A DNA stretch of 24,608 bases from a virus (Duplodnaviria; Heunggongvirae; Uroviricota; Caudoviricetes), in the IMG/VR virus record IMGVR_UViG_2534682159_000013. One strand, given 5' to 3'. The stretch's first letter is position 1. The number at the start of each line of letters is the position of its first letter. Position numbers and translations under genes: made by a program. The notes beneath the pieces were generated by a model. It was not told where the DNA came from and made no database searches. It saw only the letters and a list, made by a program, of their open reading frames with translations. Below, piece by piece: positions 11,400 to 22,958 of the stretch.

Positions 11400-11601
11400 T
11401 GCGGGGAAAGAAGAGTTAAGTAGAATTGCTGCGGGTGCTTGAGGCTGTCTGCCTCGGGCATGCCGCCGTAAGGCAGACAGAGAAAAGCCCCAGTTAACAT
11501 TACGCGTCTTGCAGGACGCTTAACATTAATCTGAGGCCCAATCTATGCTTCACAAACGTAGGTTAGCCTCTTACGTGCCGAAAGGCAAGGAGAAGCAGGC
11601 T
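11400..11601. promoter_or_regulatory. hok mRNA leader with fold-back structure; expected region for an antisense Sok-like RNA
   Basis: Inverted repeat 'ctgtctgcct..aggcagacag' (11425-11456) and 'gcgtc ttgcag gacgc' hairpin. No Sok promoter or terminator could be pinned down by eye. Confidence 0.3.
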
Positions 11602-11757
11602 ATGAAGCAGCAAAAGGCGATGTTAATCGCCCTGATCGTCATCTGTATTACCGTTGTTGTGACGGCACTGGTAACGAGGAAAGACCTCTGCGAGGTACGA
11701 ATCCGAACCGGCCAGACGGAGGTCGCTGTCTTCGTAGACTACGAATCTGAGAAGTAA
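11602..11757 (+). CDS. hokD: Hok/Gef family type I toxin (HokD/RelF-like)
   Basis: 51 aa 'MKQQKAMLIALIVICITVVVTALVTRKDLCEVRIRTGQTEVAVFVDYESEK', matching the Hok consensus and close to my recollection of HokD. AGGAG 9 nt upstream. An in-frame upstream ATG at 11545 gives a 70-aa mok-like extension. Confidence 0.85.
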   Translation: MKQQKAMLIALIVICITVVVTALVTRKDLCEVRIRTGQTEVAVFVDYESEK

Positions 11758-13261: not shown

Positions 13262-13624
13262 ATGCTCATAGATTTGGTTTTACCTTACCCGCCGACGGTG
13301 AACACTTACTGGCGACGCCGTGGCAGCACATATTTTGTATCAAAAGCCGGGGAGCGTTATCGCCGGGCAGTGGCGCTTATTGTTCGCCAGCAGCGACTGA
13401 AATTAAGCCTGTCCGGACGGCTGGCAATAAAAATTATTGCAGAGCCACCGGATAAGCGCCGCCGTGACCTGGACAATATTCTGAAAGCACCGCTGGATGC
13501 GCTGACGCACGCGGGGTTGTTAATGGACGATGAGCAGTTTGATGAAATCAATATTGTACGTGGCCAGCCAGTATCTGGTGGACGGCTGGAGATAAGAATT
13601 ACAGAGGTGGGTGTGCATGAATAA
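13262..13624 (+). CDS. rusA: Holliday junction resolvase RusA
   Basis: 120-aa ORF. 'DKRRRDLDNILKAPLDALTHAGLLMDDEQ..GGRLEIRITE' aligns with E. coli RusA ('[39 protein letters not shown]'). Confidence 0.9.
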   Translation: MLIDLVLPYPPTVNTYWRRRGSTYFVSKAGERYRRAVALIVRQQRLKLSLSGRLAIKIIAEPPDKRRRDLDNILKAPLDALTHAGLLMDDEQFDEINIVRGQPVSGGRLEIRITEVGVHE

Positions 13625-14282
13625 CCAGTATTTACAGTTTGTTCGTGAGCAACTCATGATTGCCACTGCGGATCTTAGTGGGTCGACAAAAGGCCAGCTG
13701 GAAGCCTGGCAGGAAAATGCCCTGTTCGATACAGGGCGTTACAGACGCAAAAAAATTCGTTACCGCGATGAGGTAACCGGAAAAATGATCACGCGGGATA
13801 ATCCCCCGATCCCGGGTAAACAATCACTGGCGAAAGGCTCATCAATTGCCCTGGTCAGTCCGGTTGAGTTTTCGACATCATCATGGCGACGCGCCGTTCT
13901 GTCTCTTGAAGAACATCATAAAGCCTGGCTGCAGTGGTGTTACAGCGGTAGCATTTGCTGGGAGCATCAGATCGCGATAACGCAGTGGGCGTGGACTGAA
14001 TTTAATGCTCAATCCGGTACCAGAAAAATTGCAGGAAAAACTCTGGTGCGCCTGAAGACGTTGATCTGGTTGGCGGCGCAGGCGGTAAAAGCTGAGCTTT
14101 TTGGTGGGGAAGGTTACGAATACCAGGAACTGGCGTTACTGGTGGGAGTAACAACCAAAAACTGGTCCAAGACATTTACTGGTCACTGGGTTGCAATGAA
14201 ACACATTTTTCATCGGCTGGATAGTGAAGCTTTATTGTTGGTGGAGGGAACTCGTTCAAAACAAAAGGCGGCATTTTCATAG
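13617..14282 (+). CDS. Putative late antiterminator Q (assigned by position)
   Basis: 221 aa from an ATG overlapping the rusA stop (ATGAATAA). Sits immediately upstream of a promoter and short-transcript terminator, as Q, PR' and tR' do in lambdoid phages. No Q motif recognised. Confidence 0.5.
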   Translation: MNNQYLQFVREQLMIATADLSGSTKGQLEAWQENALFDTGRYRRKKIRYRDEVTGKMITRDNPPIPGKQSLAKGSSIALVSPVEFSTSSWRRAVLSLEEHHKAWLQWCYSGSICWEHQIAITQWAWTEFNAQSGTRKIAGKTLVRLKTLIWLAAQAVKAELFGGEGYEYQELALLVGVTTKNWSKTFTGHWVAMKHIFHRLDSEALLLVEGTRSKQKAAFS

Positions 14283-14535: not shown

Positions 14536-15249
14536 ATGGATGACAGTGCTCTGCTCAGAAACTCTTCACTTTTTGTCGCTTATATGGGCTGTCTCGGATG
14601 GGGGAGCGCTTATTTCTATGGATGGGGTACTTCATTTTACTATGGCTTTCCATGGTGGGTTGTCGGGGCTGGTGTCGATGATGTAGCACGAAGTTTGTTT
14701 TATGCTGTGACAGTTATTGTTATATTCCTTATTGGATGGGGAGTTGGTATTGTTTTCTTTTTGGGCATAAAACAAAAGCGCAATATACAAAATTTGAGTT
14801 TTATCCGGCTTTTTCTCGCGATATTGCTGCTTTTTATTCCACCTGTTCTGGAGTTTTCTGTAATTCATCAGCATGTTGAGCCAGATGTACTGATTTTCTG
14901 CGTTCTTGCTGCCTTTGCAATCACGCTTTTTGTCAGGTCTGGAAGAAGACTCGTTTCAGTCAAATGTTTTTCGGAAATGTCTGTTATTCGCCATCACCGA
15001 ATTGAGTTCATGATGGCTGGGTTTATGATTTATTTCTGGGCATTCTCTCTTATTGCCGGTTGGTACAAACCACAGTTTAAGAGGGAATATCAGGCGGTCC
15101 ACTATGAGAATGTATGGTATTACATTATTGCGCGCTATGATGATCGTCTGGTGTTATCGAAATCATACAGGAGTGGGGGTAAGAAATTCGTTATATTTAA
15201 TAGCGGAAATATTAATGATTTTGAAATTAATACTGTCAGAGTACGTTAA
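14536..15249 (+). CDS. Multi-pass inner-membrane protein of unknown function (AT-rich moron)
   Basis: 237 aa with 4-5 hydrophobic, Trp/Phe/Gly-rich segments and a soluble C-terminal tail of about 60 aa. An overlapping ORF in another frame (14468-14686) leaves the start uncertain. Confidence 0.55.
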   Translation: MDDSALLRNSSLFVAYMGCLGWGSAYFYGWGTSFYYGFPWWVVGAGVDDVARSLFYAVTVIVIFLIGWGVGIVFFLGIKQKRNIQNLSFIRLFLAILLLFIPPVLEFSVIHQHVEPDVLIFCVLAAFAITLFVRSGRRLVSVKCFSEMSVIRHHRIEFMMAGFMIYFWAFSLIAGWYKPQFKREYQAVHYENVWYYIIARYDDRLVLSKSYRSGGKKFVIFNSGNINDFEINTVRVR

Positions 15250-15422
15250 AATTTCCTGAGTAATAAAGATTTTACTGCCCGGCATTGAGCGGTTTTTTTA
15301 TGCCAGAAAAATGGTGCAGTACATAAAATGTGCAGGTGGTTATTAATACCGGTCTTTCAGCTTGCTGGCTTTTTTGACAAGAGTTATTGGTGTGTCACGT
15401 TAACCGGAAAAGGGAAAAAGAC

Positions 15423-15620
15423 ATGCTGAAACAGCAGGATATGACAGAAACCGCCAGAGCAGTTTTTAATGAATTAAGTGCCACCGAACCGGCGACAGTC
15501 GGGGAGATTGCACAGAATACGTACCTTTCACGCGAACGCTGCCAGCTAATACTGACCCAGCTTGTTATGGCGGGTCTGGCAGACTATCAGTTTGGTTGTT
15601 ACAGACGCCTTCAGTCCTGA
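15423..15620 (+). CDS. Small winged-helix-like DNA-binding protein
   Basis: 65 aa from the ATG at 15423 ('MLKQQDMTE...'). 'VGEIAQNTYLSRERCQLILTQLVMAGL' looks like a recognition helix and wing. Stop is embedded in a terminator hairpin. Confidence 0.5.
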   Translation: MLKQQDMTETARAVFNELSATEPATVGEIAQNTYLSRERCQLILTQLVMAGLADYQFGCYRRLQS

Positions 15621-15630
15621 AGGCTTTTTT
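15607..15630 (+). terminator. Intrinsic terminator
   Basis: 'gccttcag tcc tgaaggc tttttt'. Confidence 0.6.
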
Positions 15631-15771
15631 ATTTGTGGTAAATGGGCGGCTGGTGGGTGTTAGGGGCACTCACCAGCCATCTGCTCATGCGTTGGGGTCA
15701 CAAGCAAACCTCAGGCCCATCTGCTTTGCGCAAAAGCGGTATGAGCCTATCAGAGACAGGCTTAATGATCC

Positions 15772-16830
15772 ATGTTTAATACTGTAAAAATATCCAGTTG
15801 TGAGTTAATCAACGCCGACTGCCTGGAATTTATCCGGTCGTTACCCGAAAATTCTGTTGACCTGATAGTCACGGACCCGCCGTACTTTAAAGTGAAGCCT
15901 GAGGGCTGGGATAACCAGTGGAAGGGCGACGATGACTACCTGAAGTGGCTGGACCAGTGTCTGGCGCAGTTCTGGCGGGTGCTGAAACCTGCCGGAAGTC
16001 TTTACCTGTTCTGTGGCCATCGCCTGGCATCTGACATTGAAATCATGATGCGTGAACGCTTCAGTGTACTGAACCATATTATCTGGGCGAAGCCGTCCGG
16101 ACGCTGGAACGGGTGCAACAAGGAAAGCCTGAGGGCGTATTTCCCCGCCACAGAGCGCATTCTGTTCGCGGAACATTATCAGGGGCCGTATCGTCCGAAA
16201 GATGCCGGGTATGAGGCGAAGGGCAGGGCACTGAAACAGCATGTGATGGCTCCGCTGATTGCTTACTTTCGTGATGCGCGTGCTGCCCTGGGGATAACGG
16301 CAAAACAGATAGTGGATGCCACAGGAAAGAAAAACATGGTGTCGCACTGGTTCAGTGCCAGTCAGTGGCAGCTACCGAACGAAAGCGATTATCTGAAATT
16401 ACAGGCGCTGTTTGCCCGGGTGGCAGAAGAGAAGCATCAGCGGGGGGAACTGGAGAAGCCCCACCACCAGCTGCTGGAGACGTATACTTCACTGAACCGG
16501 CAGTATGCGGAACTGCAGAGTGAATATAAGCATCTGCGGCGGTATTTTGGCGTGACGGCGCAGGTGCCGTACACGGATGTGTGGACGCATAAACCGGTGC
16601 AGTACTATCCCGGGAAACATCCGTGCGAAAAACCGGCAGAAATGCTGCAGCAGATAATCAGCGCGAGCAGTCGTCCGGGGGACCTGGTTGCAGATTTTTT
16701 CATGGGGTCGGGTTCGACAGTCAAAGCCGCGATGGCGCTGGGGCGTCGTGCAACTGGCGTTGAGCTGGAGACTGAACGTTTTGAGCAGACGGTCAGGGAA
16801 GTTCAGGATTTAGTCAGTCAGAACGGATGA
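15772..16830 (+). CDS. DNA methyltransferase (beta-class N6A/N4C, DPPY then FxGSG), orphan
   Basis: 352-aa ORF. 'LIVTDPPYF' (motif IV) near the N-terminus and 'VADFFMGSGST' (motif I) near the C-terminus. No adjacent restriction endonuclease candidate. Confidence 0.85.
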   Translation: MFNTVKISSCELINADCLEFIRSLPENSVDLIVTDPPYFKVKPEGWDNQWKGDDDYLKWLDQCLAQFWRVLKPAGSLYLFCGHRLASDIEIMMRERFSVLNHIIWAKPSGRWNGCNKESLRAYFPATERILFAEHYQGPYRPKDAGYEAKGRALKQHVMAPLIAYFRDARAALGITAKQIVDATGKKNMVSHWFSASQWQLPNESDYLKLQALFARVAEEKHQRGELEKPHHQLLETYTSLNRQYAELQSEYKHLRRYFGVTAQVPYTDVWTHKPVQYYPGKHPCEKPAEMLQQIISASSRPGDLVADFFMGSGSTVKAAMALGRRATGVELETERFEQTVREVQDLVSQNG

Positions 16831-16870
16831 TATTGCAGGATTAGTTACGTACCGTTATTATCCTGCGACC

Positions 16871-16946
16871 GGCCCTTTAGCTCAGTGGTGAGAGCGAGCG
16901 ACTCATAATCGCCAGGTCGCTGGTTCAAATCCAGCAAGGGCCACCA
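16871..16946 (+). tRNA. ileZ: tRNA-Ile2 (anticodon CAU; ileX/ileZ-like)
   Basis: Cloverleaf folded by hand: acceptor ggccctt/aagggcc, D-arm gctc..gagc, anticodon loop 'ctCATaa', T-loop 'ttcaaat', 3' CCA. Near-identical to my recollection of E. coli ileX. A CAU anticodon cannot be distinguished from Met by sequence alone. Confidence 0.85.
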
Positions 16947-16954
16947 TATCCATA

Positions 16955-17031
16955 CCGCCATTAGCTCATCGGGATAGAGCGCCAGCCTTCGAAGCTGGCT
17001 GCGCGGGGTTCGAGTCCTCGATGGCGGTCCA
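16955..17031 (+). tRNA. tRNA-Arg (anticodon UCG)
   Basis: Cloverleaf: acceptor ccgccat/atggcgg, D-arm gctc..gagc, anticodon stem ccagc/gctgg with loop 'ctTCGaa', T-arm cgggg ttcgagt cctcg, 3' CCA. Confidence 0.8.
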
Positions 17032-17309
17032 TTATCTGCATTATGCGTTGTTGGTTCTGATGAGTGAATCATTGTCTTTTGAGCAACAGGCTATCATATA
17101 AGATAGCCTCAGACTTCCTTGTTTATTCTCGCCGGATGCTTCGTAGATATTTGCAGGCATCTGTATGCAGGGGTATTATTGCGGCATATATCATCCGGAA
17201 AAATAAAAACTACATGCTGATCCGGAGATGATAGTTACAAGTCCTCCCGGATCCCGCATATTTACTATATTTTATAGATAATTGTTCTTGTTAATATGGA
17301 GATGGATAA

Positions 17310-17738
17310 ATGTATTGCCGTGCTGTACCTGTTCTTGTTTTGATATTAGCCAGTCTGACAACTGGCTGCACAAAAGATGTATCGACAAATAATCATGATG
17401 CTTCTCTGTATCACTCAGATAAATTAATAAAGTCGCAAAAATTGAGCTCATCGGAACGTACCCCTGATGCCAGTGAAGAAATCCGGCAGTATGCCATTCA
17501 GGTCAGGAAAGCCATAGAAGAACAGTTAAAGGATGCGAGTAAGTATTCAGGAAAAGAGTGTTCACTGAGAATGTATATGGCCCCGAATGGTCTTCTGCTA
17601 CAGGTTAAAAGAGAAAGCGGTGATCCCGATTTATGTCGTGAAGCGATGAATGCAGTAAAGAATGCTGATATACCATCACCACCGTCTTCAGGAGTATATA
17701 AAGCATTTAGAAATGGCGTGTTGGATTTTAAACTCTGA
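17310..17738 (+). CDS. Lipoprotein with TolA C-terminal (TolAIII)-like domain
   Basis: 142-aa ORF with GGAGATGG Shine-Dalgarno. Signal peptide ending 'LASLTTGC' (lipobox-like). C-terminal 'YSGKECSLRMYMAPNGLLLQVKRESGDPDLCREAMNAVKNADIPSPPSSGVYKAFRNGVLDFKL' aligns along its length with my recollection of E. coli TolA domain III ('YAGKTCTLRIKLAPDGMLLDIKPEGGDPALCQAALAAAKLAKIPKPPSQAVYEVFKNAPLDFKP'). Confidence 0.8.
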   Translation: MYCRAVPVLVLILASLTTGCTKDVSTNNHDASLYHSDKLIKSQKLSSSERTPDASEEIRQYAIQVRKAIEEQLKDASKYSGKECSLRMYMAPNGLLLQVKRESGDPDLCREAMNAVKNADIPSPPSSGVYKAFRNGVLDFKL

Positions 17739-17874
17739 CAGGGGGAGAAGATTTTCTCCTGTCCTGATGATTTTGGGGCGCTGGAAAGATATTGTGCTGT
17801 GAAGTGTTAAATCCCTCACAATTCAGTAAGTTGACAGTTGCCTGTCAGACTGAGCATTTGTTAAAAAAATTTCG

Positions 17875-18052
17875 CATGGTGAATCCCCCTGTGCGGAGGG
17901 GCGACTGGTGAACGGTATGATCTCTTTGATGATCGTAAGCGAGAATACGCGGGTTTGGTGTCACCGGGCTGAACTCACCGGGAGGCACCCGGCACCATGC
18001 TCATGGTGATACAGAAATGCGGCTTCAGCCCCTCTCCGGAGGGGCTTTCTTA
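17875..18052 (+). ncRNA. Solitary copy (A) of the repeat-encoded structured RNA
   Basis: Conserved 5' module 'catggtgaatccccctgtgcggagggg', variable middle, conserved 3' module 'caccgggaggcacccggcaccatg', then terminator 'gcccctctccggaggggc' + T-rich tail. In the ATG frame there is a stop after 11 codons. Confidence 0.45.
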
Positions 18053-18204
18053 TGGACAAAAAAAGCCCGCGCTGGGAGACGCGGGCGGCAAGGAATAAAC
18101 AATAAAACGTGAAGTAATACTTCAACTGGCGAATAATACCCGACAGTAATCACTCTGCGCAATAGCGTGGCCTTTTTCGAATTGCGGGCTGTAGTCTCCC
18201 TTCT

Positions 18205-18370
18205 GCCGGGTGTCCTGGTTGCAGATTTCTTCATGGGGTAGGGTTCGGCAGTTAAAGCAGCGATGGCGCTGGGGCGTCGTGCAACTGGCGTTGAGCTGGA
18301 TACCGGGCGTTTTGAACAGATTGCGCAGGAAATCAGGGATGTATTTAGCGGGAGCGGTTTGCAGAAGTAA
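18205..18370 (+). pseudogene. 3' remnant of a second copy of the DNA methyltransferase gene
   Basis: Nucleotide homology to 16672-16830; the first ~100 nt are near-identical by eye. Encodes '..LVADFFMG*GSAVKAAMALGRRATGVELD..' with an in-frame TAG where the intact gene has a Ser codon; no 5' part of the gene is present. Confidence 0.7.
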
Positions 18371-18433
18371 TCTCCCAAAATGCCATTTTTGGAATATACT
18401 GGTATTAAGTCTTTTTGCTCAGGTTAATTCAAA

Positions 18434-19159
18434 ATGGATGTTGCCTGCTCTGTGGTCCTGATTCGCTATCCGATAGATATTTTTCTTGAAAAAGAAAAAG
18501 TTTCACTCGATGCCGGAAGTGTTATGCTTGTTGCCAGAAATATAAGAGGGCTTTTCTGTGCTTATGCCGACAGAGTGAAAATGGCAGATATAAGTAACAG
18601 CGTCGTCAATCAGTATCTGGAAAGGGAGTGTGAACTGACGGAGTATACACCGACAAAAATGCCTCTTTATTTGATGTCTGATATTTACAATACGGAACTG
18701 GCGGAGGCTTTAATAACCCAGCATAGTGAATCCAGTGATACTTTGAAGGATTTCTCTGTTATAACCGCATTTTCATGTATCTCCTTATTTGCAACAGACA
18801 GACGTCTGCCATTATTTTTGTCCGGTGCTGTAAATAATATCAGCTGTAAAGTAAGGGCTATAATTCAGACCGACATATCGGCAGGCTGGATGCTTGGTGT
18901 GATTGCATTACAATTGCATATGAGCGAAAGCTTGTTGAAGCGAAAACTTAAGGATGAAGGTTATAGCTTTAGTCGGTTGTTGCTGGAGGAGCGAATGCGT
19001 GTTGCTGTTAATCTTGTATGTTTCCAGCGAGAGTGTGGACAAGCGATAGCGGAAAAATGTGGTTACTCAAGTAAGTCCTACTTCATTTCTGTATTTCACC
19101 AGTATTATGGTGCACCACCTGAGAGCTATGCATATTTGCAGAAAGCAGACGTTATCTGA
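18434..19159 (+). CDS. AraC/XylS-family transcriptional regulator (prophage-encoded)
   Basis: 241-aa ORF. C-terminal double HTH ('WMLGVIALQLHMSESLLKRKLKDEGYSFSRLLLEERMRVAVNLV..AIAEKCGYSSKSYFISVFHQYYGAPP'). AT-rich. Confidence 0.8.
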   Translation: MDVACSVVLIRYPIDIFLEKEKVSLDAGSVMLVARNIRGLFCAYADRVKMADISNSVVNQYLERECELTEYTPTKMPLYLMSDIYNTELAEALITQHSESSDTLKDFSVITAFSCISLFATDRRLPLFLSGAVNNISCKVRAIIQTDISAGWMLGVIALQLHMSESLLKRKLKDEGYSFSRLLLEERMRVAVNLVCFQRECGQAIAEKCGYSSKSYFISVFHQYYGAPPESYAYLQKADVI

Positions 19160-19248
19160 TGTTTTTTCATCAGGCATATATTGATTGACTGTATTAGATA
19201 TAGTCTGAATGTGTTCAGCATAAAAAGTTATAATCATTTGGTGTTTGC

Positions 19249-19527
19249 GTGAATATTGATGAGAAAATCAGATGTAGCCAACTGTTACAGCGTATTGAAG
19301 CCGTCAATGTGGAACGAACAAAGGTCTTCAGTCGTCTGACAGTTTTATTTTGTACCCCTGATCGACGTTCAGGTCAGGAGATGGTTCTTCTGGATGTAGA
19401 TGCACTTCGGAACGTCTGTGAGGAGTTCACCGCGGCTAATTCGGAGTTACTGAGTCTTGTTCAGGAGTACAACAGAATTGCAGGTAGTAACGGTTTTGAT
19501 GAAATCAAAATTATATCCCGTGGATAA
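19249..19527 (+). CDS. Hypothetical small protein (weak call)
   Basis: 92-aa ORF from a GTG start; TATAAT at 19227-19232 immediately upstream; no Shine-Dalgarno. Confidence 0.3.
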   Translation: MNIDEKIRCSQLLQRIEAVNVERTKVFSRLTVLFCTPDRRSGQEMVLLDVDALRNVCEEFTAANSELLSLVQEYNRIAGSNGFDEIKIISRG

Positions 19528-19846
19528 AACATATCCTGTATATTTATGTTGTTACATACAGGCGCTTTTAGTATCTGCCGCACGGCAGTTGTACTTCAGA
19601 ATAAGATGCTTTTGTGACTGGTGGTGTTGTATCTGGGGTTAGCCAGTAGGCAGGTTCAGAGAGTCCGGTGGTAATTATGTGTATGCAGTGGTTGTTGCTG
19701 TACCGTGGGCAAGTTCTGGAACTGGCTTCGTCCATTGTAGATGATTGTTAGCTGGATATCAGTTACCTCATGGAAATGTTAAATGACTCACAATTCGGTT
19801 GATGGGCTATTGTCTGATCGATGGAAGTCTTGTAAAAACGAGCCAG

Positions 19847-20010
19847 CATAGTGAATCCCCCTGTGCGGAGGGGCGTCTGACATGGTCTCCATAGCGATGG
19901 TCACAATACGCAGATTCAGTAGTCAGGCTGAATCTACCGGGAGGCACCCGGCACTATGCTGCTTATGGTGTATACATAGCGATCGGCCCCTCTCCGGAGG
20001 GGCTTTTTTT
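19847..20010 (+). ncRNA. Repeat-encoded structured RNA, copy B
   Basis: 5' 'catAgtg' pairs with 3' 'cacTatg' (compensatory change relative to the other copies); no ATG at the 5' module. Confidence 0.45.
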
Positions 20011-20105
20011 GTGCGGGAAAAGGCTGTGTTGTTAAGTGTTAAATTCCTCACAGTTCAGATGGTTGATGCTTGCCTGTCTGAGGGGGAGTTGTTAAAAAAG
20101 TTCTG

Positions 20106-20279
20106 CATGGTGAATCCCCCTGTGCGGAGGGGCGACTGGTGTGATTTGCATCTTTTCTGTTGTAGGCAATGCAAACGCGGGTTCAGGGACACCAGACTGG
20201 ACTCACCGGGAGGCACCCGGCACCATGTTCATGATGATACAGATACGCAGTGTCAGCCCCTCTCCTGAGGGGCTTTTTT
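20106..20279 (+). ncRNA. Repeat-encoded structured RNA, copy C
   Basis: 5' catggtg pairs with 3' caccatg. Variable region carries nested stems 'ctggtgt..acaccag' and 'tttgcat..atgcaaa'. Confidence 0.45.
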
Positions 20280-20375
20280 ATGCAGGAAAAACGCTGTGTT
20301 GTGAAATGTTAAATTCCTCACAGTTCAGATGGTTGATGCTTGCCTGTCTTACGGGGAGTTGTTAAAAAAGTTCTG

Positions 20376-20539
20376 CATGGTGAATCCCCCTGAGCGGAGG
20401 GGCATATCAGCGCAGGTGTTTCTACTCTATCCTTTCTGTGCGGGTTCAGGTGCTGATACTGAACTCACCGGGAGGCACCCGGCATCATGCATATGGTTAA
20501 CAGACACGTAGCGAAGCCCCTCTCCGGAGGGGCTTTTTT
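20376..20539 (+). ncRNA. Repeat-encoded structured RNA, copy D
   Basis: 5' catggtg pairs with 3' catcatg (one G-U). Variable stem 'tatcagc..gctgata'. Loop of the 5' hairpin is changed (gagcgg) while the stem is kept. Confidence 0.45.
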
Positions 20540-20636
20540 ATGCAGGGAAAAGGCTGTGTTGTGAAATGTTAAATTCCTCACAATTCATGAGGTTGATGAT
20601 TGTCTGATTGATGAGGAGTTTGTTAAAAAAAACGGG

Positions 20637-20790
20637 CATGGTGAATCCCCCTGTGCGGAGGGGTGATATCGTATCATTTCCTGTGTGGCCGACTGATATC
20701 ACGGACATTTGTTCACCGGGAGGCACCCGGCACCATGCAGTATACAGAGATTAGGCATACATCCAGGCTCCTCATCGCAGGAGCCTTTTT
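20637..20790 (+). ncRNA. Repeat-encoded structured RNA, copy E
   Basis: 5' catggtg pairs with 3' caccatg. Variable stem 'gtgatatc..gatatcac'. Terminator sequence differs ('ggctcct catcgc aggagcc ttttt') but sits at the same position. Confidence 0.45.
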
Positions 20791-21023
20791 ACATGTAAAA
20801 AAAAACCGCTCCTGGGAAGAGCGGTTGGCAAGGAAGCAAGGAATAAATAACAAAACGTGAAGTAATTTATTCAGCACCCTAATAATACCTTAGAGTAATC
20901 ACCTTGCGCAACTGTAAGGGCGTATTTCTTTTTTGCGGGCTGTTTTTCTGTGTGACTTTTGTGTTTCCGGAGGTCAGCCCGTGCCTTCTCTGACTCAGAA
21001 CATTATCCCGGCCGGGAGGATTC

Positions 21024-22958
21024 ATGGCATTTAAACACTACGATGTGGTCAGGGCGGCATCGCCGTCAGACCTTGCTGAACGACTGACACAAAAACTGAA
21101 GGAGGGCTGGCAGCCATTTGGCAGTCCGGTGGCCATCACGCCTTATACCCTGATGCAGGCCATTGCGGCGGAAGGTGATGTCACCACACCAGTGGCGGTG
21201 ACCGGTAATGAGGGTAAGGCGGTGGCTGTCAGTGCCACCAGCGACCCGGAGTATTACTTTGTTGTGGTTCTGGCAGGGCAGTCAAATGGCATGTCGTATG
21301 GTGAAGGTCTTCCGCTGCCGGAGACATATGACCGCCCGGACCCGCGTATTAAGCAGCTGGCGCGCCGCAGTACGGTGACACCGGGCGGTGCAGCATGCAA
21401 ATATAACGACATCATTCCGGCGGACCATTGTCTGCATGATGTGCAGGACATGAGCCGCCTTAACCATCCGAAAGCGGACCTGTCAAAGGGGCAGTACGGA
21501 ACCGTGGGGCAGGGACTGCATATCGCCAAAAAACTGCTGCCGTTTATACCGGCGAATGCGGGCATTCTGCTGGTTCCGTGCTGTCGTGGTGGTTCAGCGT
21601 TCACCACCGGAGCTGATGGCACATACAGTGACGCGAGTGGTGCCTCGGAGAATTCAACCCGCTGGGGTATGGACAAGCCGCTGTATAAGGACCTTATCGG
21701 TCGAACAAAAGCAGCACTGAAGAAGAGCCCGAAAAATGTGCTGTTGCCGTGGTGTGGATGCAGGGGAATTGATTTTGGCGGTACGCCGGTAAATCACGCA
21801 GCACAGTTTGGTGCGCTGGTTGATAAATTCCGTGCAGACCTGGCGGATATGGCAGGTCAGTGCGTCGGTGGCTCTGCTGGCGGTGTTCCCTGGATATGTG
21901 GAGATACGACGTATTTCTGGAAGCAGAAGAACGAATCCACGTACCAGACGGTGTACGGCAGCTATAAAAACAAAACGGAAAAGAATATCCATTTCGTACC
22001 GTTCATGACGGATGAGAACGGGGTGAATGTGCCGACGAACAAACCGGAAGAAGACCCGGACATTCCGGGTATCGGGTATTACGGTTCGAAATGGCGTGAC
22101 AGCTCAGCCACCTGGACGTCACAGGACAGGGCGAGCCATTTCAGCACCTGGGCACGCCGGGGGATTATTTCCGACCGTCTGGCAACGGCGATTCTGATTC
22201 ATGCAGGACGAACCACAGTAAAAGTCGATGCTCCATCTTCTGAAACTGGCGCACCGACGCCATCACCGTCAGAAAATGAAGCGGTAAGCACAACAACACT
22301 GCTGTCTTACCGTGCCAGTGAGTCTGAAGGGAGGCTGACCGAACAGGGCTGGAGTGCTGGAGGAGGTAAAGCGGAAATTGTTGCCGATGAAGGTGCAACA
22401 GGTGGTACCGCGATGAAGCTGAGTAAGGAGACAGGAGTGGGGGCATGGTATCTGGAGCATGATGCCGGTACTGGCGCTGAACTACTGAAAAATGGCGGTT
22501 TAATCAGCTGCCGCTTTAAGGCATCCGGTGAACTGGTAGCAAATCAGTATGTCATTGCACTTTACTGGCCGGTTTCCTCTCTGCCGCAGGGTGTCACCCT
22601 GACAGGGGATGCAGGGAATAATCTGCTGGCAGCGTTCTACATCCAGACAGATGCAAAAGACCTGAATGTGATGTACCACAATGCGAAAGTGGCGACAAAC
22701 AACCTGAAGCTGGGAAGCTTTGGCGCATTTGATAACGAATGGCATACGCTGGCCTTCCGCTTTGCCGGGAATAACAGCCTTCAGGTGACGCCGGTTCTTG
22801 ATGGTCAGGATGGCACACCGTTCACGCTGACGCAGTCACCGGTCAGTGCCTTTGCGGCGGATAAACTGCATGTGACAGACATTACCAAAGGTGCGACTTA
22901 CCCGGTACTGATAGACAGCATTACGGTGGAAGTGAATAACGCGGATGCCGCGGCATGA
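21024..22958 (+). CDS. nanS: NanS-p-like sialate O-acetylesterase (SASA/SGNH domain plus C-terminal beta-rich domain)
   Basis: 644-aa ORF. 'FVVVLAGQSNGMSYGEG' (GQSN esterase motif). Size and position (late region, upstream of holin S) match the NanS-p/YjhS-like gene of Stx phages. Confidence 0.8.
   Translation: MAFKHYDVVRAASPSDLAERLTQKLKEGWQPFGSPVAITPYTLMQAIAAEGDVTTPVAVTGNEGKAVAVSATSDPEYYFVVVLAGQSNGMSYGEGLPLPETYDRPDPRIKQLARRSTVTPGGAACKYNDIIPADHCLHDVQDMSRLNHPKADLSKGQYGTVGQGLHIAKKLLPFIPANAGILLVPCCRGGSAFTTGADGTYSDASGASENSTRWGMDKPLYKDLIGRTKAALKKSPKNVLLPWCGCRGIDFGGTPVNHAAQFGALVDKFRADLADMAGQCVGGSAGGVPWICGDTTYFWKQKNESTYQTVYGSYKNKTEKNIHFVPFMTDENGVNVPTNKPEEDPDIPGIGYYGSKWRDSSATWTSQDRASHFSTWARRGIISDRLATAILIHAGRTTVKVDAPSSETGAPTPSPSENEAVSTTTLLSYRASESEGRLTEQGWSAGGGKAEIVADEGATGGTAMKLSKETGVGAWYLEHDAGTGAELLKNGGLISCRFKASGELVANQYVIALYWPVSSLPQGVTLTGDAGNNLLAAFYIQTDAKDLNVMYHNAKVATNNLKLGSFGAFDNEWHTLAFRFAGNNSLQVTPVLDGQDGTPFTLTQSPVSAFAADKLHVTDITKGATYPVLIDSITVEVNNADAAA

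Follow-up and report, generated by a model that had tools for sequence, protein, structure and literature searches.

Two tandem cassettes occupy the cargo slot

The window, the whole 24,608-nucleotide stretch of viral DNA that we analysed, is a lambdoid prophage at ompW from a Shiga-toxin-type E. coli lineage. The Q antiterminator gene (13617-14282) lies upstream of a classical cargo ("moron") slot and on the same strand, which places the slot in a late-operon moron position. The slot is flanked by a DNA methyltransferase gene (M) and by nanS-p. Its usual content in relatives is one cassette, with the 3′ end of M as left border and a convergent sRNA pair as right border. In this pair, a plus-strand STnc100 sRNA faces a minus-strand antisense RNA with the two terminators back-to-back. 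The slot of the window holds two cassettes in tandem. Cassette 1 runs M, tRNA-Ile, tRNA-Arg, a TolA-like gene, STnc100 copy A, and block X; cassette 2 runs from a methyltransferase remnant (m′) through AraC, orf92, and four STnc100 copies to block X′, with nanS-p following. The features are as follows.

15772-16830, plus strand: intact DNA methyltransferase gene M, 352 aa, N6_N4_Mtase (Pfam PF01555, E = 5.8e-44; PGAP CDS); left conserved slot border.
16675-16789, plus strand: repeat copy 1, the 3′ part of M, recurring at 18206-18320 (window self-comparison).
16871-17031, plus strand: tRNA-Ile (CAT anticodon, ileZ type) and tRNA-Arg (TCG), the start of cassette 1 (ARAGORN; Rfam tRNA; PGAP).
17310-17738, plus strand: gene for a TolA C-terminal-domain protein, 142 aa, cassette 1 cargo (Pfam PF06519, E = 5.7e-23).
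17845-18057, plus strand: STnc100 sRNA copy A with its own terminator, the plus-strand half of the convergent pair closing cassette 1 (Rfam RF02076, 172 bits).
18058-18207, minus strand: block X copy 1, EcOnc08/21-type antisense RNA unit (identity to the Sakai Sp4 EcOnc08 Hfq-CRAC peak; terminator scan).
18206-18209, no strand: illegitimate junction 18207/18208, CTTCTGCC joined to GGGTGTCC (comparison with relatives and intact methylases).
18206-18370, plus strand: methyltransferase remnant m′, last 54 codons, left end-piece of cassette 2 (alignment; PGAP pseudogene).
18404-19682, plus strand: 1,279-bp unit of an AraC-family regulator gene (18434-19159) and orf92 (19249-19527) (Pfam HTH_18/HTH_AraC).
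19817-20796, plus strand: four STnc100 copies B-E in tandem, period about 260-270 nt (Rfam).
20797-21030, minus strand: block X′ (copy 2), complete EcOnc08/21-type antisense unit adjoining nanS-p (alignment; terminator scan; promoter comparison).
21024-22958, plus strand: nanS-p-like esterase gene (DUF1737, SASA, and DUF6645), right conserved slot border (Pfam; PGAP).

The tRNA with the CAT anticodon is called Met by ARAGORN and tRNA-Ile by PGAP. The TolA-like gene (39-43% GC) and the AraC-orf92 unit (39-42%) are both low in GC, and the five STnc100 copies match RF02076 with scores of 119-172 bits.

The end-pieces of the slot are each present twice

Positions 16675-16789 and 18206-18320 align without gaps at 89.6% identity (E = 5.6e-40 in a window-sized search). 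Extending this repeat to 152 nt lowers the identity to 81%, and beyond it the final 40 nt of M and the aligned tail of m′ are unrelated (21/40 identical). The homology of M and m′ begins at 18206, and the two alleles part at 16790/16791, 40 nt before the gene end (16830) at which the earlier note had set the breakpoint. The repeat that it reported, with the end of M (16672-16830) recurring at 18205-18370, is confirmed. Within repeat copy 1 lies a 41-mer (16729-16769) that is unchanged in all copies of M and of the remnant retrieved with an 18-nt probe from within it.

The second copy was also said to lack a 5′ part and to carry an in-frame stop, and both features are present. The translation of m′ aligns with M, a TAG at 18239-18241 replaces a Ser codon, and the fragment ends with its own TAA at 18368-18370. 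The 54-aa fragment alone has no Pfam match; on an identical genome, PGAP lists it as 'DNA methyltransferase; internal stop; incomplete; missing N-terminus'. The remnant is a PF01555-family pseudogene, already annotated as such by PGAP, and is without function.

Blocks X and X′ are 80% identical with one gap between 18088-18162 and 20836-20911 (E = 1e-13), and a gapped alignment spans the whole ~140-bp stretch, with TTGCGGGCTG ending both copies. The reported recurrence of the ~140 bp after STnc100 copy A behind copy E thus holds over the entire span named. The homology of X to relatives extends as far as 18207. The EcOnc08 peak matches the window at 18060-18132 on the same strand (73 nt, 94.5% identity) and X′ over 31 nt (96.8%). 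The repeated block is a conserved gene unit of EcOnc08/21 antisense RNA at the slot border; this corrects a likely misreading of it as a mark or scar of recombination, as the earlier note had it. A search of the window with the Rfam models of AsxR (RF02703) and AgvB (RF02702) gave no match at gathering score or at E ≤ 1, while the positive control L024, a relative, scored 63 bits for AsxR. Assignment of block X to AsxR/AgvB was rejected on these results.

The GC hairpins in both blocks had been proposed to terminate minus-strand transcription, and sequence scans agree: terminator-like sites lie on the minus strand at 18086-18065 in X copy 1, with a U-run to 18058, and at 20826-20804 in X′, followed by a T-run. 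The scan of 16600-21100 returned 15 terminator-like sites, compared with 3.7 expected. X copy 1 has a candidate internal promoter (-35 TTGCGC, 18162-18157; -10 TATTAT, 18138-18133) and a predicted RNA of 70 nt (18127 to 18058). The same frame recurs in X′ as TTGCGC (20911-20906)-N18-TATTAT (20887-20882). A second promoter-like site further upstream in X′, ATGCCA-17-GATAAT at 21030-21002, overlaps the nanS-p ATG and is also found in Sakai Sp4. Because the upstream end of X copy 1 is cut by the junction, the promoter overlapping the nanS-p start codon is missing there; the terminator and the internal promoter-like frame are retained. A consensus promoter scan omits TTGCGC-N18-TATTAT, since its -35 fits at only 3/6 positions, and the internal promoter call rests on conservation in the collected X variants (one has GATTAT) and on its positional homology to the start site of AsxR. 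RNAalifold did not recover the terminator from ten X transcripts because the alleles fail to align in register. The same register shift skews a manual pair count on the X transcripts, in which 85% of cells are paired and two pairs show compensatory changes. Terminators were therefore taken from per-sequence scans.

Cassettes are joined across a two-nucleotide overlap

Across the junction the window reads CTTCTGCC followed by GGGTGTCCTGG. In the relatives L002 and L003, CTTCTGCC runs on towards nanS-p as ATTGTCCTGTAAC / ATTGTCCTG, and L024 has CTCCTGCC there; intact methylases read AGTCGTCC followed by GGGTGACCTGG at the position of the join. To the left of the join lies spacer sequence from upstream of nanS-p, and to the right a second methylase allele, entered at about codon 302. 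The actual junction is thus at 18207/18208 and not at 18190, the breakpoint given earlier. Both source sequences overlap at the join by only 2 nt, CC (18206-18207), which identifies the join as illegitimate rather than the product of homologous recombination. A search for extended homology across the junction of X and m′ in both parental types found CC alone. Given this overlap and a TGTCCTG three bases further on, the event could be described as a microhomology-mediated join. The 20-odd composites inspected, the divergent L028 among them, all have an identical junction and the same TAG, a uniformity indicative of one origin.

Cassettes occur alone, together, or not at all

The whole composite arrangement is present in 75 of 5,426 complete E. 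coli genomes. The tRNA-TolA cassette occurs without the AraC segment in L024, L029, and at least 22 RefSeq genomes, the AraC segment alone occurs in L009, L011, and strain SMBL, and L002 has neither. The modules are therefore real, and the earlier note was right to treat them as separable. AraC-only loci are rare (1/5,426 RefSeq genomes versus 75 composites). The AraC-orf92 unit is missing from the composite of strain JNEC-KY203, as shown by L028, which links window position 18403 directly to 19683. STnc100 copy number also differs between relatives, with one unit fewer in L007 and L014 and two fewer in L009 and L011.

The window is collinear with the cassette-1-only L024 over 15289-18217, after which L024 enters nanS-p. 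From 18206 onwards it is collinear with the AraC-type L009, at 98.1% identity over 18206-20135 and 94.3% over 20303-22214. The identity of X copy 1 is 93-95% to X of O157 prophages but about 80% to X′, and the right-hand nanS-p allele is 72-78% identical to nanS-p of the cassette-1-only relatives and of L028. These affinities indicate that the two halves derive from different lineages.

The AraC-only loci lack exactly the inter-repeat interval of 1,531 bp and have an intact chimeric methylase with AraC directly after it. This methylase is M-type at five private sites before the 41-mer and m′-type after it. AraC-only loci are 98.2-99.6% identical to the window in all shared segments, the 5′ part of M included, and the junction-bearing L028 only 72-98%. 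They thus fall within the composite group and are most likely deletion derivatives, an argument from nesting that assumes little later recombination in prophages that recombine often. One protein, P0009, crosses the junction into a remnant whose front is M-type, a sign of gene conversion.

The private changes of m′ (GTC Val, GCA Ala, GTT, and GCA) were used to look for the second parent. A BLAST search of 5,426 E. coli genomes with the remnant returned no intact methylase carrying its private substitutions, nor was one found when metagenome, viral, and genome collections were scanned for exact patterns. With the repaired 54-aa C-terminus as protein query, the best matches were 94% identical and all M-type at the private sites. 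The second parent is accordingly one that we infer rather than observe. A search with a synthetic joint query for the exact cassette-1-only parent with an EcOnc08-type X found only AsxR-type or more divergent relatives; the cassette-1-only relatives identified have an AsxR-type block X, or the EcOnc08 type at only 85-93% identity (L023).

A single non-homologous join probably built the arrangement

The end-pieces of the cargo slot are probably present twice because two cassettes were fused head-to-tail through a single non-homologous join. Most likely, two phages with collinear genomes recombined in a single crossover that was both unequal and illegitimate. The cassette-1 partner would have contributed the left side, ending in the spacer ~60 nt before nanS-p; the second partner, with another methylase tail and other cargo, would have contributed the right side, beginning near codon 302 of its methylase. 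Such a join would leave both end-pieces twice, as diverged alleles, and the apparent duplications would be its outcome and not its sites. The resulting direct repeats would then have become targets of homologous recombination. Crossing over within the invariant 41-mer would remove cassette 1 (1,531 bp), restore a chimeric 355-aa methylase, and place AraC directly next to it. Gene conversion between the two copies of the methylase occurs as well, and STnc100 units are gained or lost. We hold this sequence of illegitimate fusion and later homologous trimming to be the probable history; the involvement of two different phages and the order of events are what we infer from the comparisons.

The earlier note had proposed that the cassettes were swapped by homologous recombination between related phages, with crossovers at the duplicated methylase end and the 140-bp block, and we consider this improbable. 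Both blocks are indeed conserved borders in hundreds to thousands of E. coli prophages, and the cassettes are seen in all combinations. The methylase 3′ end also does act as a crossover site, given that the chimeric methylase of L009 and L011 switches type inside the 41-mer. Exchange at common borders, however, replaces one cassette by another and leaves a single copy of each border, so the composite was not built in this way. Nor can such a swap put a methylase 3′ end right after block X, where the junction shares just CC with its sources. Slightly more probable, though still unlikely, is that the AraC-only architecture (a 355-aa methylase and then AraC, as in L009, L011, and SMBL) represents the ancestral second parent, with the private substitutions of m′ arising after pseudogenization. 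That architecture does exist in relatives, and from the methylase tail onwards it matches the window at 98-99%. It is, however, rare, and five private differences fall in the first ~55 nt of m′ with at most one in the rest, a pattern with a chance of about (1/3)^5 if changes were random over the 165 nt. The 5′ part of the AraC-only methylase is moreover as near to composite M (98.2-98.5%) as are other composites, which would be unexpected had M come from the other parent, and the junction-bearing L028 branches deeper than L009 in all shared segments.

A tandem duplication of the interval from methylase end to X within one phage, followed by divergence and replacement of cargo, would yield the observed order of border, cargo, border, cargo, border. 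It is very hard to reconcile with copies that differ by 10% (methylase) and 20% (X) and with unrelated methylase tails and cargo. Divergence in place would also not bring one copy to near-identity with alleles elsewhere, such as the 93-95% that X copy 1 shows with X of unrelated O157 prophages. We give least credence to the insertion of cassette 1 or 2 by a transposon or an integron-like site-specific system. IS421, ISVsa5, and an IS3-family element occupy the region in other strains, but this region of the window contains no transposase or integrase gene, and neither terminal inverted repeats nor target-site duplications occur at 16790, 18207, 18403/19683, or 20950.

Comparison with known systems

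For lambdoid and Stx prophages, a moron site with a convergent sRNA pair has been published (Tree et al. 2014, PMC4104026). The window resembles that site in its position downstream of Q/PR′ and in its succession of cargo, plus-strand STnc100-type sRNA, converging minus-strand Hfq-bound RNA, and, after X′, esterase ORF. A plus-strand STnc100/EcOnc05/27-type sRNA with a terminator lies 3′ of the cargo, and a converging minus-strand RNA with its own terminator is predicted from the two terminator-like sites and the EcOnc08 match. The esterase gene nanS-p at 21024 follows X′, and the methylase remnant follows X copy 1. Unlike the published site, the window has the unit twice in tandem, the second time with a four-copy STnc100 array. 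About 75 complete STEC genomes with this composite have two EcOnc08-type units and five STnc100 copies that are unmarked in annotation at present.

The EcOnc08 Hfq-CRAC peak belongs to prophage Sp4 of O157 Sakai (PMC4104026 Table S2). EcOnc21 lies directly upstream on the same strand, and the two have a common ~271-nt Northern band (PMC4104026); EcOnc42 is located 3′ of stx1 in Sakai Sp15. The function of EcOnc08, EcOnc21, and EcOnc42 is listed as unknown (PMC7873438). X copy 1 shares with Sakai EcOnc08 its strand, terminator, and position relative to STnc100, but is cut ~45 nt upstream of the internal -35 and is without the promoter-like site at the nanS-p start. X′ is instead a divergent allele with another terminator stem and an 8-nt TTCCTTGC insertion.

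AsxR and AgvB occupy the same slot, and in L024 the AsxR gene stands in for the EcOnc08-type body. Both types have a -35 TTGCGC with the -10 box 18 nt later, whereas the body and terminator sequences of AsxR/AgvB are unrelated to those of the EcOnc08-type X. We raise only tentatively the idea that the EcOnc08-type unit is a third allelic class of AsxR/AgvB-style short anti-sRNAs. The RNA predicted for such a class would be ~70-80 nt long, with a conserved U-rich body behind a variable 5′ end, which takes four forms in the 43 unique copies. The prophage would in that case have two differently 'addressed' X copies alongside five STnc100 copies, and tandem fusion would stack regulatory RNAs as well as protein cargo.

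Mosaic boundaries and gene remnants in lambdoid phages arise through illegitimate recombination, then selection, and then homologous exchange at conserved linkers. The locus is ordinary phage mosaicism and no new kind of element. It is a clean worked example of cargo gain, in which an illegitimate join would stack cassettes and homologous recombination between the duplicated borders would trim them, even rebuilding an intact chimeric methylase gene. The likeness to other lambdoid boundaries extends to a gene fragment at the novel joint, flanks of different allelic lineages, and later homologous crossovers in conserved stretches. The window differs in nothing of kind, and stands as one well-resolved case showing both an illegitimate joint and a later homologous deletion product.

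Organization of the locus

At this locus, two moron cassettes are fused in tandem within a known cargo slot. The locus has been annotated in part and is assembled from published RNA elements; as an instance of lambdoid mosaicism it is instructive yet ordinary. The earlier note had taken a duplicated methylase end and a duplicated block of ~140 bp for homologous-recombination junctions between swapped modules; both duplications proved real, and that reading of them holds in part. E. coli O91:H21 strain FWSEC0008 is 100% identical to window 15700-21100, and its counterpart of the window is a lambdoid prophage adjoining ompW. The gene order is as follows.

Q antiterminator gene, plus strand, first in the order
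TfpB-like ORF and 65-aa ORF, plus strand, between Q and M
15772-16830, plus strand, DNA methyltransferase M (PF01555)
tRNA-Ile (CAT anticodon) and tRNA-Arg, plus strand, 3' of M (ARAGORN, PGAP)
17310-17738, plus strand, TolA C-terminal-domain gene
17845-18057, plus strand, STnc100 copy A (Rfam)
Block X, minus-strand unit, between STnc100 copy A and m'
Methyltransferase remnant m', plus strand, after block X and before the AraC gene
18434-19159, plus strand, AraC-family gene, with orf92 next
19817-20796, plus strand, four further STnc100 copies
Block X', between the STnc100 array and the nanS-p-like gene
From 21024, plus strand, nanS-p-like esterase gene

The TfpB-like ORF (237 aa, window 14536-15249) carries a precomputed Pfam TfpB label (PF27470) in related contigs and is present in some composite-carrying backbones and missing from others. 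The tRNA at 16871-16946 is called tRNA-Met (CAT) by ARAGORN and tRNA-Ile (ileZ) by PGAP and the Sakai annotation; it presumably decodes Ile after lysidine modification. A sok antisense RNA (RF01794, 118 bits; window 11433-11607) lies beside a Hok/Gef family gene (~11602-11757), and the pair therefore forms a hok/sok toxin-antitoxin locus in the prophage early region.

The central junction and its origin

The methylase repeat aligns M 16675-16789 with 18206-18320 at 89.6% identity, ungapped (E=5.6e-40). Past the repeat, the end of M shows no relationship to the remnant tail (21/40 identical). A TAG at 18239-18241 interrupts the remnant, which extends to 18370; in the existing PGAP annotation it is a pseudogene, incomplete and with an internal stop.

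Block X of relatives runs on towards the ATG of nanS-p as ...CTTCTGCC ATTGTCCTGTAAC...; the sequence in intact methylases is ...AGTCGTCC GGGTGACCTGGTTGC; and the window has CTTCTGCC GGGTGTCCTGGTTGC across the junction. The joint falls at 18207|18208, and the join is illegitimate (at most microhomology-level) because CC is the sole overlap of the two sources. Left of the joint, collinearity between the window and cassette-1-only prophages extends to 18217; right of it, collinearity with AraC-type loci starts at 18206. X copy 1 is 93-95% identical to X of O157 prophages versus 80% to X', and the right-hand nanS-p allele is only 72-78% identical to nanS-p of cassette-1-only relatives and of L028, a composite lacking AraC and orf92. 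Junction and TAG are the same in every composite inspected, the divergent L028 included, which argues for a single founding event. The simplest history would be that two collinear phage genomes from different lineages crossed over once, unequally, an event that would automatically duplicate both borders. An intact donor methylase bearing the remnant's private changes turned up neither in 5,426 E. coli genomes, nor by protein search, nor in pattern scans of metagenome, viral and genome collections; a search with a synthetic joint query gave no exact cassette-1 parent whose X is of the EcOnc08 type.

Related architectures and events after the join

Related architectures of the cargo slot
Empty slot: M, STnc100, X, nanS-p; O157 strain Z1814, L002
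Cassette 1 only: M, two tRNAs, TolA, STnc100, X, nanS-p; G6/7 (L024), 2013C-3033 (L029), GN05476 (L023); at least 22 RefSeq genomes among the matches listed
Composite as in the window: 75 of 5,426 genomes
Composite without AraC and orf92: JNEC-KY203 (L028); window 18404-19682 missing
AraC only: intact 355-aa methylase, then AraC directly; L009, L011, strain SMBL; 1 of 5,426 RefSeq genomes

The AraC-only loci are missing precisely the 1,531-bp interval that separates the repeats. At five remnant-private sites their methylase is M-type, and past an invariant 41-mer (16729-16769 = 18260-18300) it is remnant-type. They match the window at 98.2-99.6% in all shared segments, the M 5' part included, whereas the junction-bearing L028 matches at 72-98%; being closer to the window than L028, they nest inside the composite group. 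AraC-only loci are best read, on these sequence comparisons, as having arisen by deletion when the two methylase copies recombined, which would restore an intact chimeric gene. In protein P0009, the reading frame runs through the X|m' junction and on into a remnant that has an M-type front and lacks a stop codon, which points to gene conversion between the two copies. The methylase 3' end thus served as a homologous crossover site, as the earlier note proposed, in the composite's later fate (deletion, gene conversion) but not in its origin. We infer this order of events from the nesting argument, which later recombination could blur.

AraC and orf92 behave as a discrete 1,279-bp unit, with only 'AT' common to both ends in L028 (3403/3394); orf92 (19249-19527) has no Pfam match and is linked to the AraC gene in all loci seen. 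The STnc100 array (19817-20796) has four copies in the window; in otherwise near-identical prophages (L007, L014, L009 and L011) it has three, which shortens it by about 262-270 bp, or two, which shortens it by 530 bp. This variation fits unequal crossover between units. In other strains, insertion sequences occupy the same cassette (L004 2292-3404 and 6473-7681; L013 2335-3563): IS421 sits within M, ISVsa5 at the 3' end of the AraC gene, and in variant u06 an IS3-family element severs the terminator of X copy 1.

Block X as an antisense RNA unit

X and X' can be aligned across the whole span of the proposed second repeat, with a core (18088-18162 versus 20836-20911) at 80% identity (E=1e-13). 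A terminator scan bore out the hairpins as minus-strand terminators: intrinsic terminators open both blocks (18086-18065 and 20826-20804). In O157 lambdoid prophages, convergent sRNA pairs have the moron cargo downstream of PR' on one side and a conserved ORF on the other (Tree et al. 2014, PMC4104026). In Sakai Sp4, the Hfq-CRAC peaks of EcOnc08 (1179938-1180010) and EcOnc21 (1180016-1180101) are both on the minus strand (Tree et al. 2014, Table S2, PMC4104026), and the two share one ~271-nt Northern band (PMC4104026). Window 18060-18132 is 94.5% identical to the EcOnc08 peak; by this match block X is the EcOnc08/21/42 antisense unit, convergent with STnc100. EcOnc08/21/42 are listed without known function (PMC7873438), and an Rfam search found no entry for this type of unit. 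STnc100 is the EcOnc05/27-type counterpart, related to PasD (bioRxiv 10.64898/2026.05.13.724894).

On the minus strand, a conserved promoter-like ATGCCA-17-GATAAT lies over the start codon of nanS-p (window 21002-21030; Sakai L027 3137-3165) and is a candidate start for an EcOnc08/21 RNA antisense to the nanS-p leader. The predicted RNA would be ~200 nt and span both peaks. X copy 1 has lost this site; an internal TTGCGC-N18-TATTAT is retained in nearly all of 43 unique X variants collected. In L024, AsxR (RF02703) occupies the X slot, and its experimentally mapped 5' end is 5 nt past a TAAAAT box; this box follows, at a distance of 18 nt, the TTGCGC also seen in X. This shared spacing makes a short ~70-nt RNA (18127->18058) from block X plausible by analogy. 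The AsxR-type (L024 4525-4577, minus strand) and EcOnc08-type (window 18058-18132) RNA bodies are alternative alleles of one slot, and loci of the two types are alike in the -35 TTGCGC and in the flank towards nanS-p.
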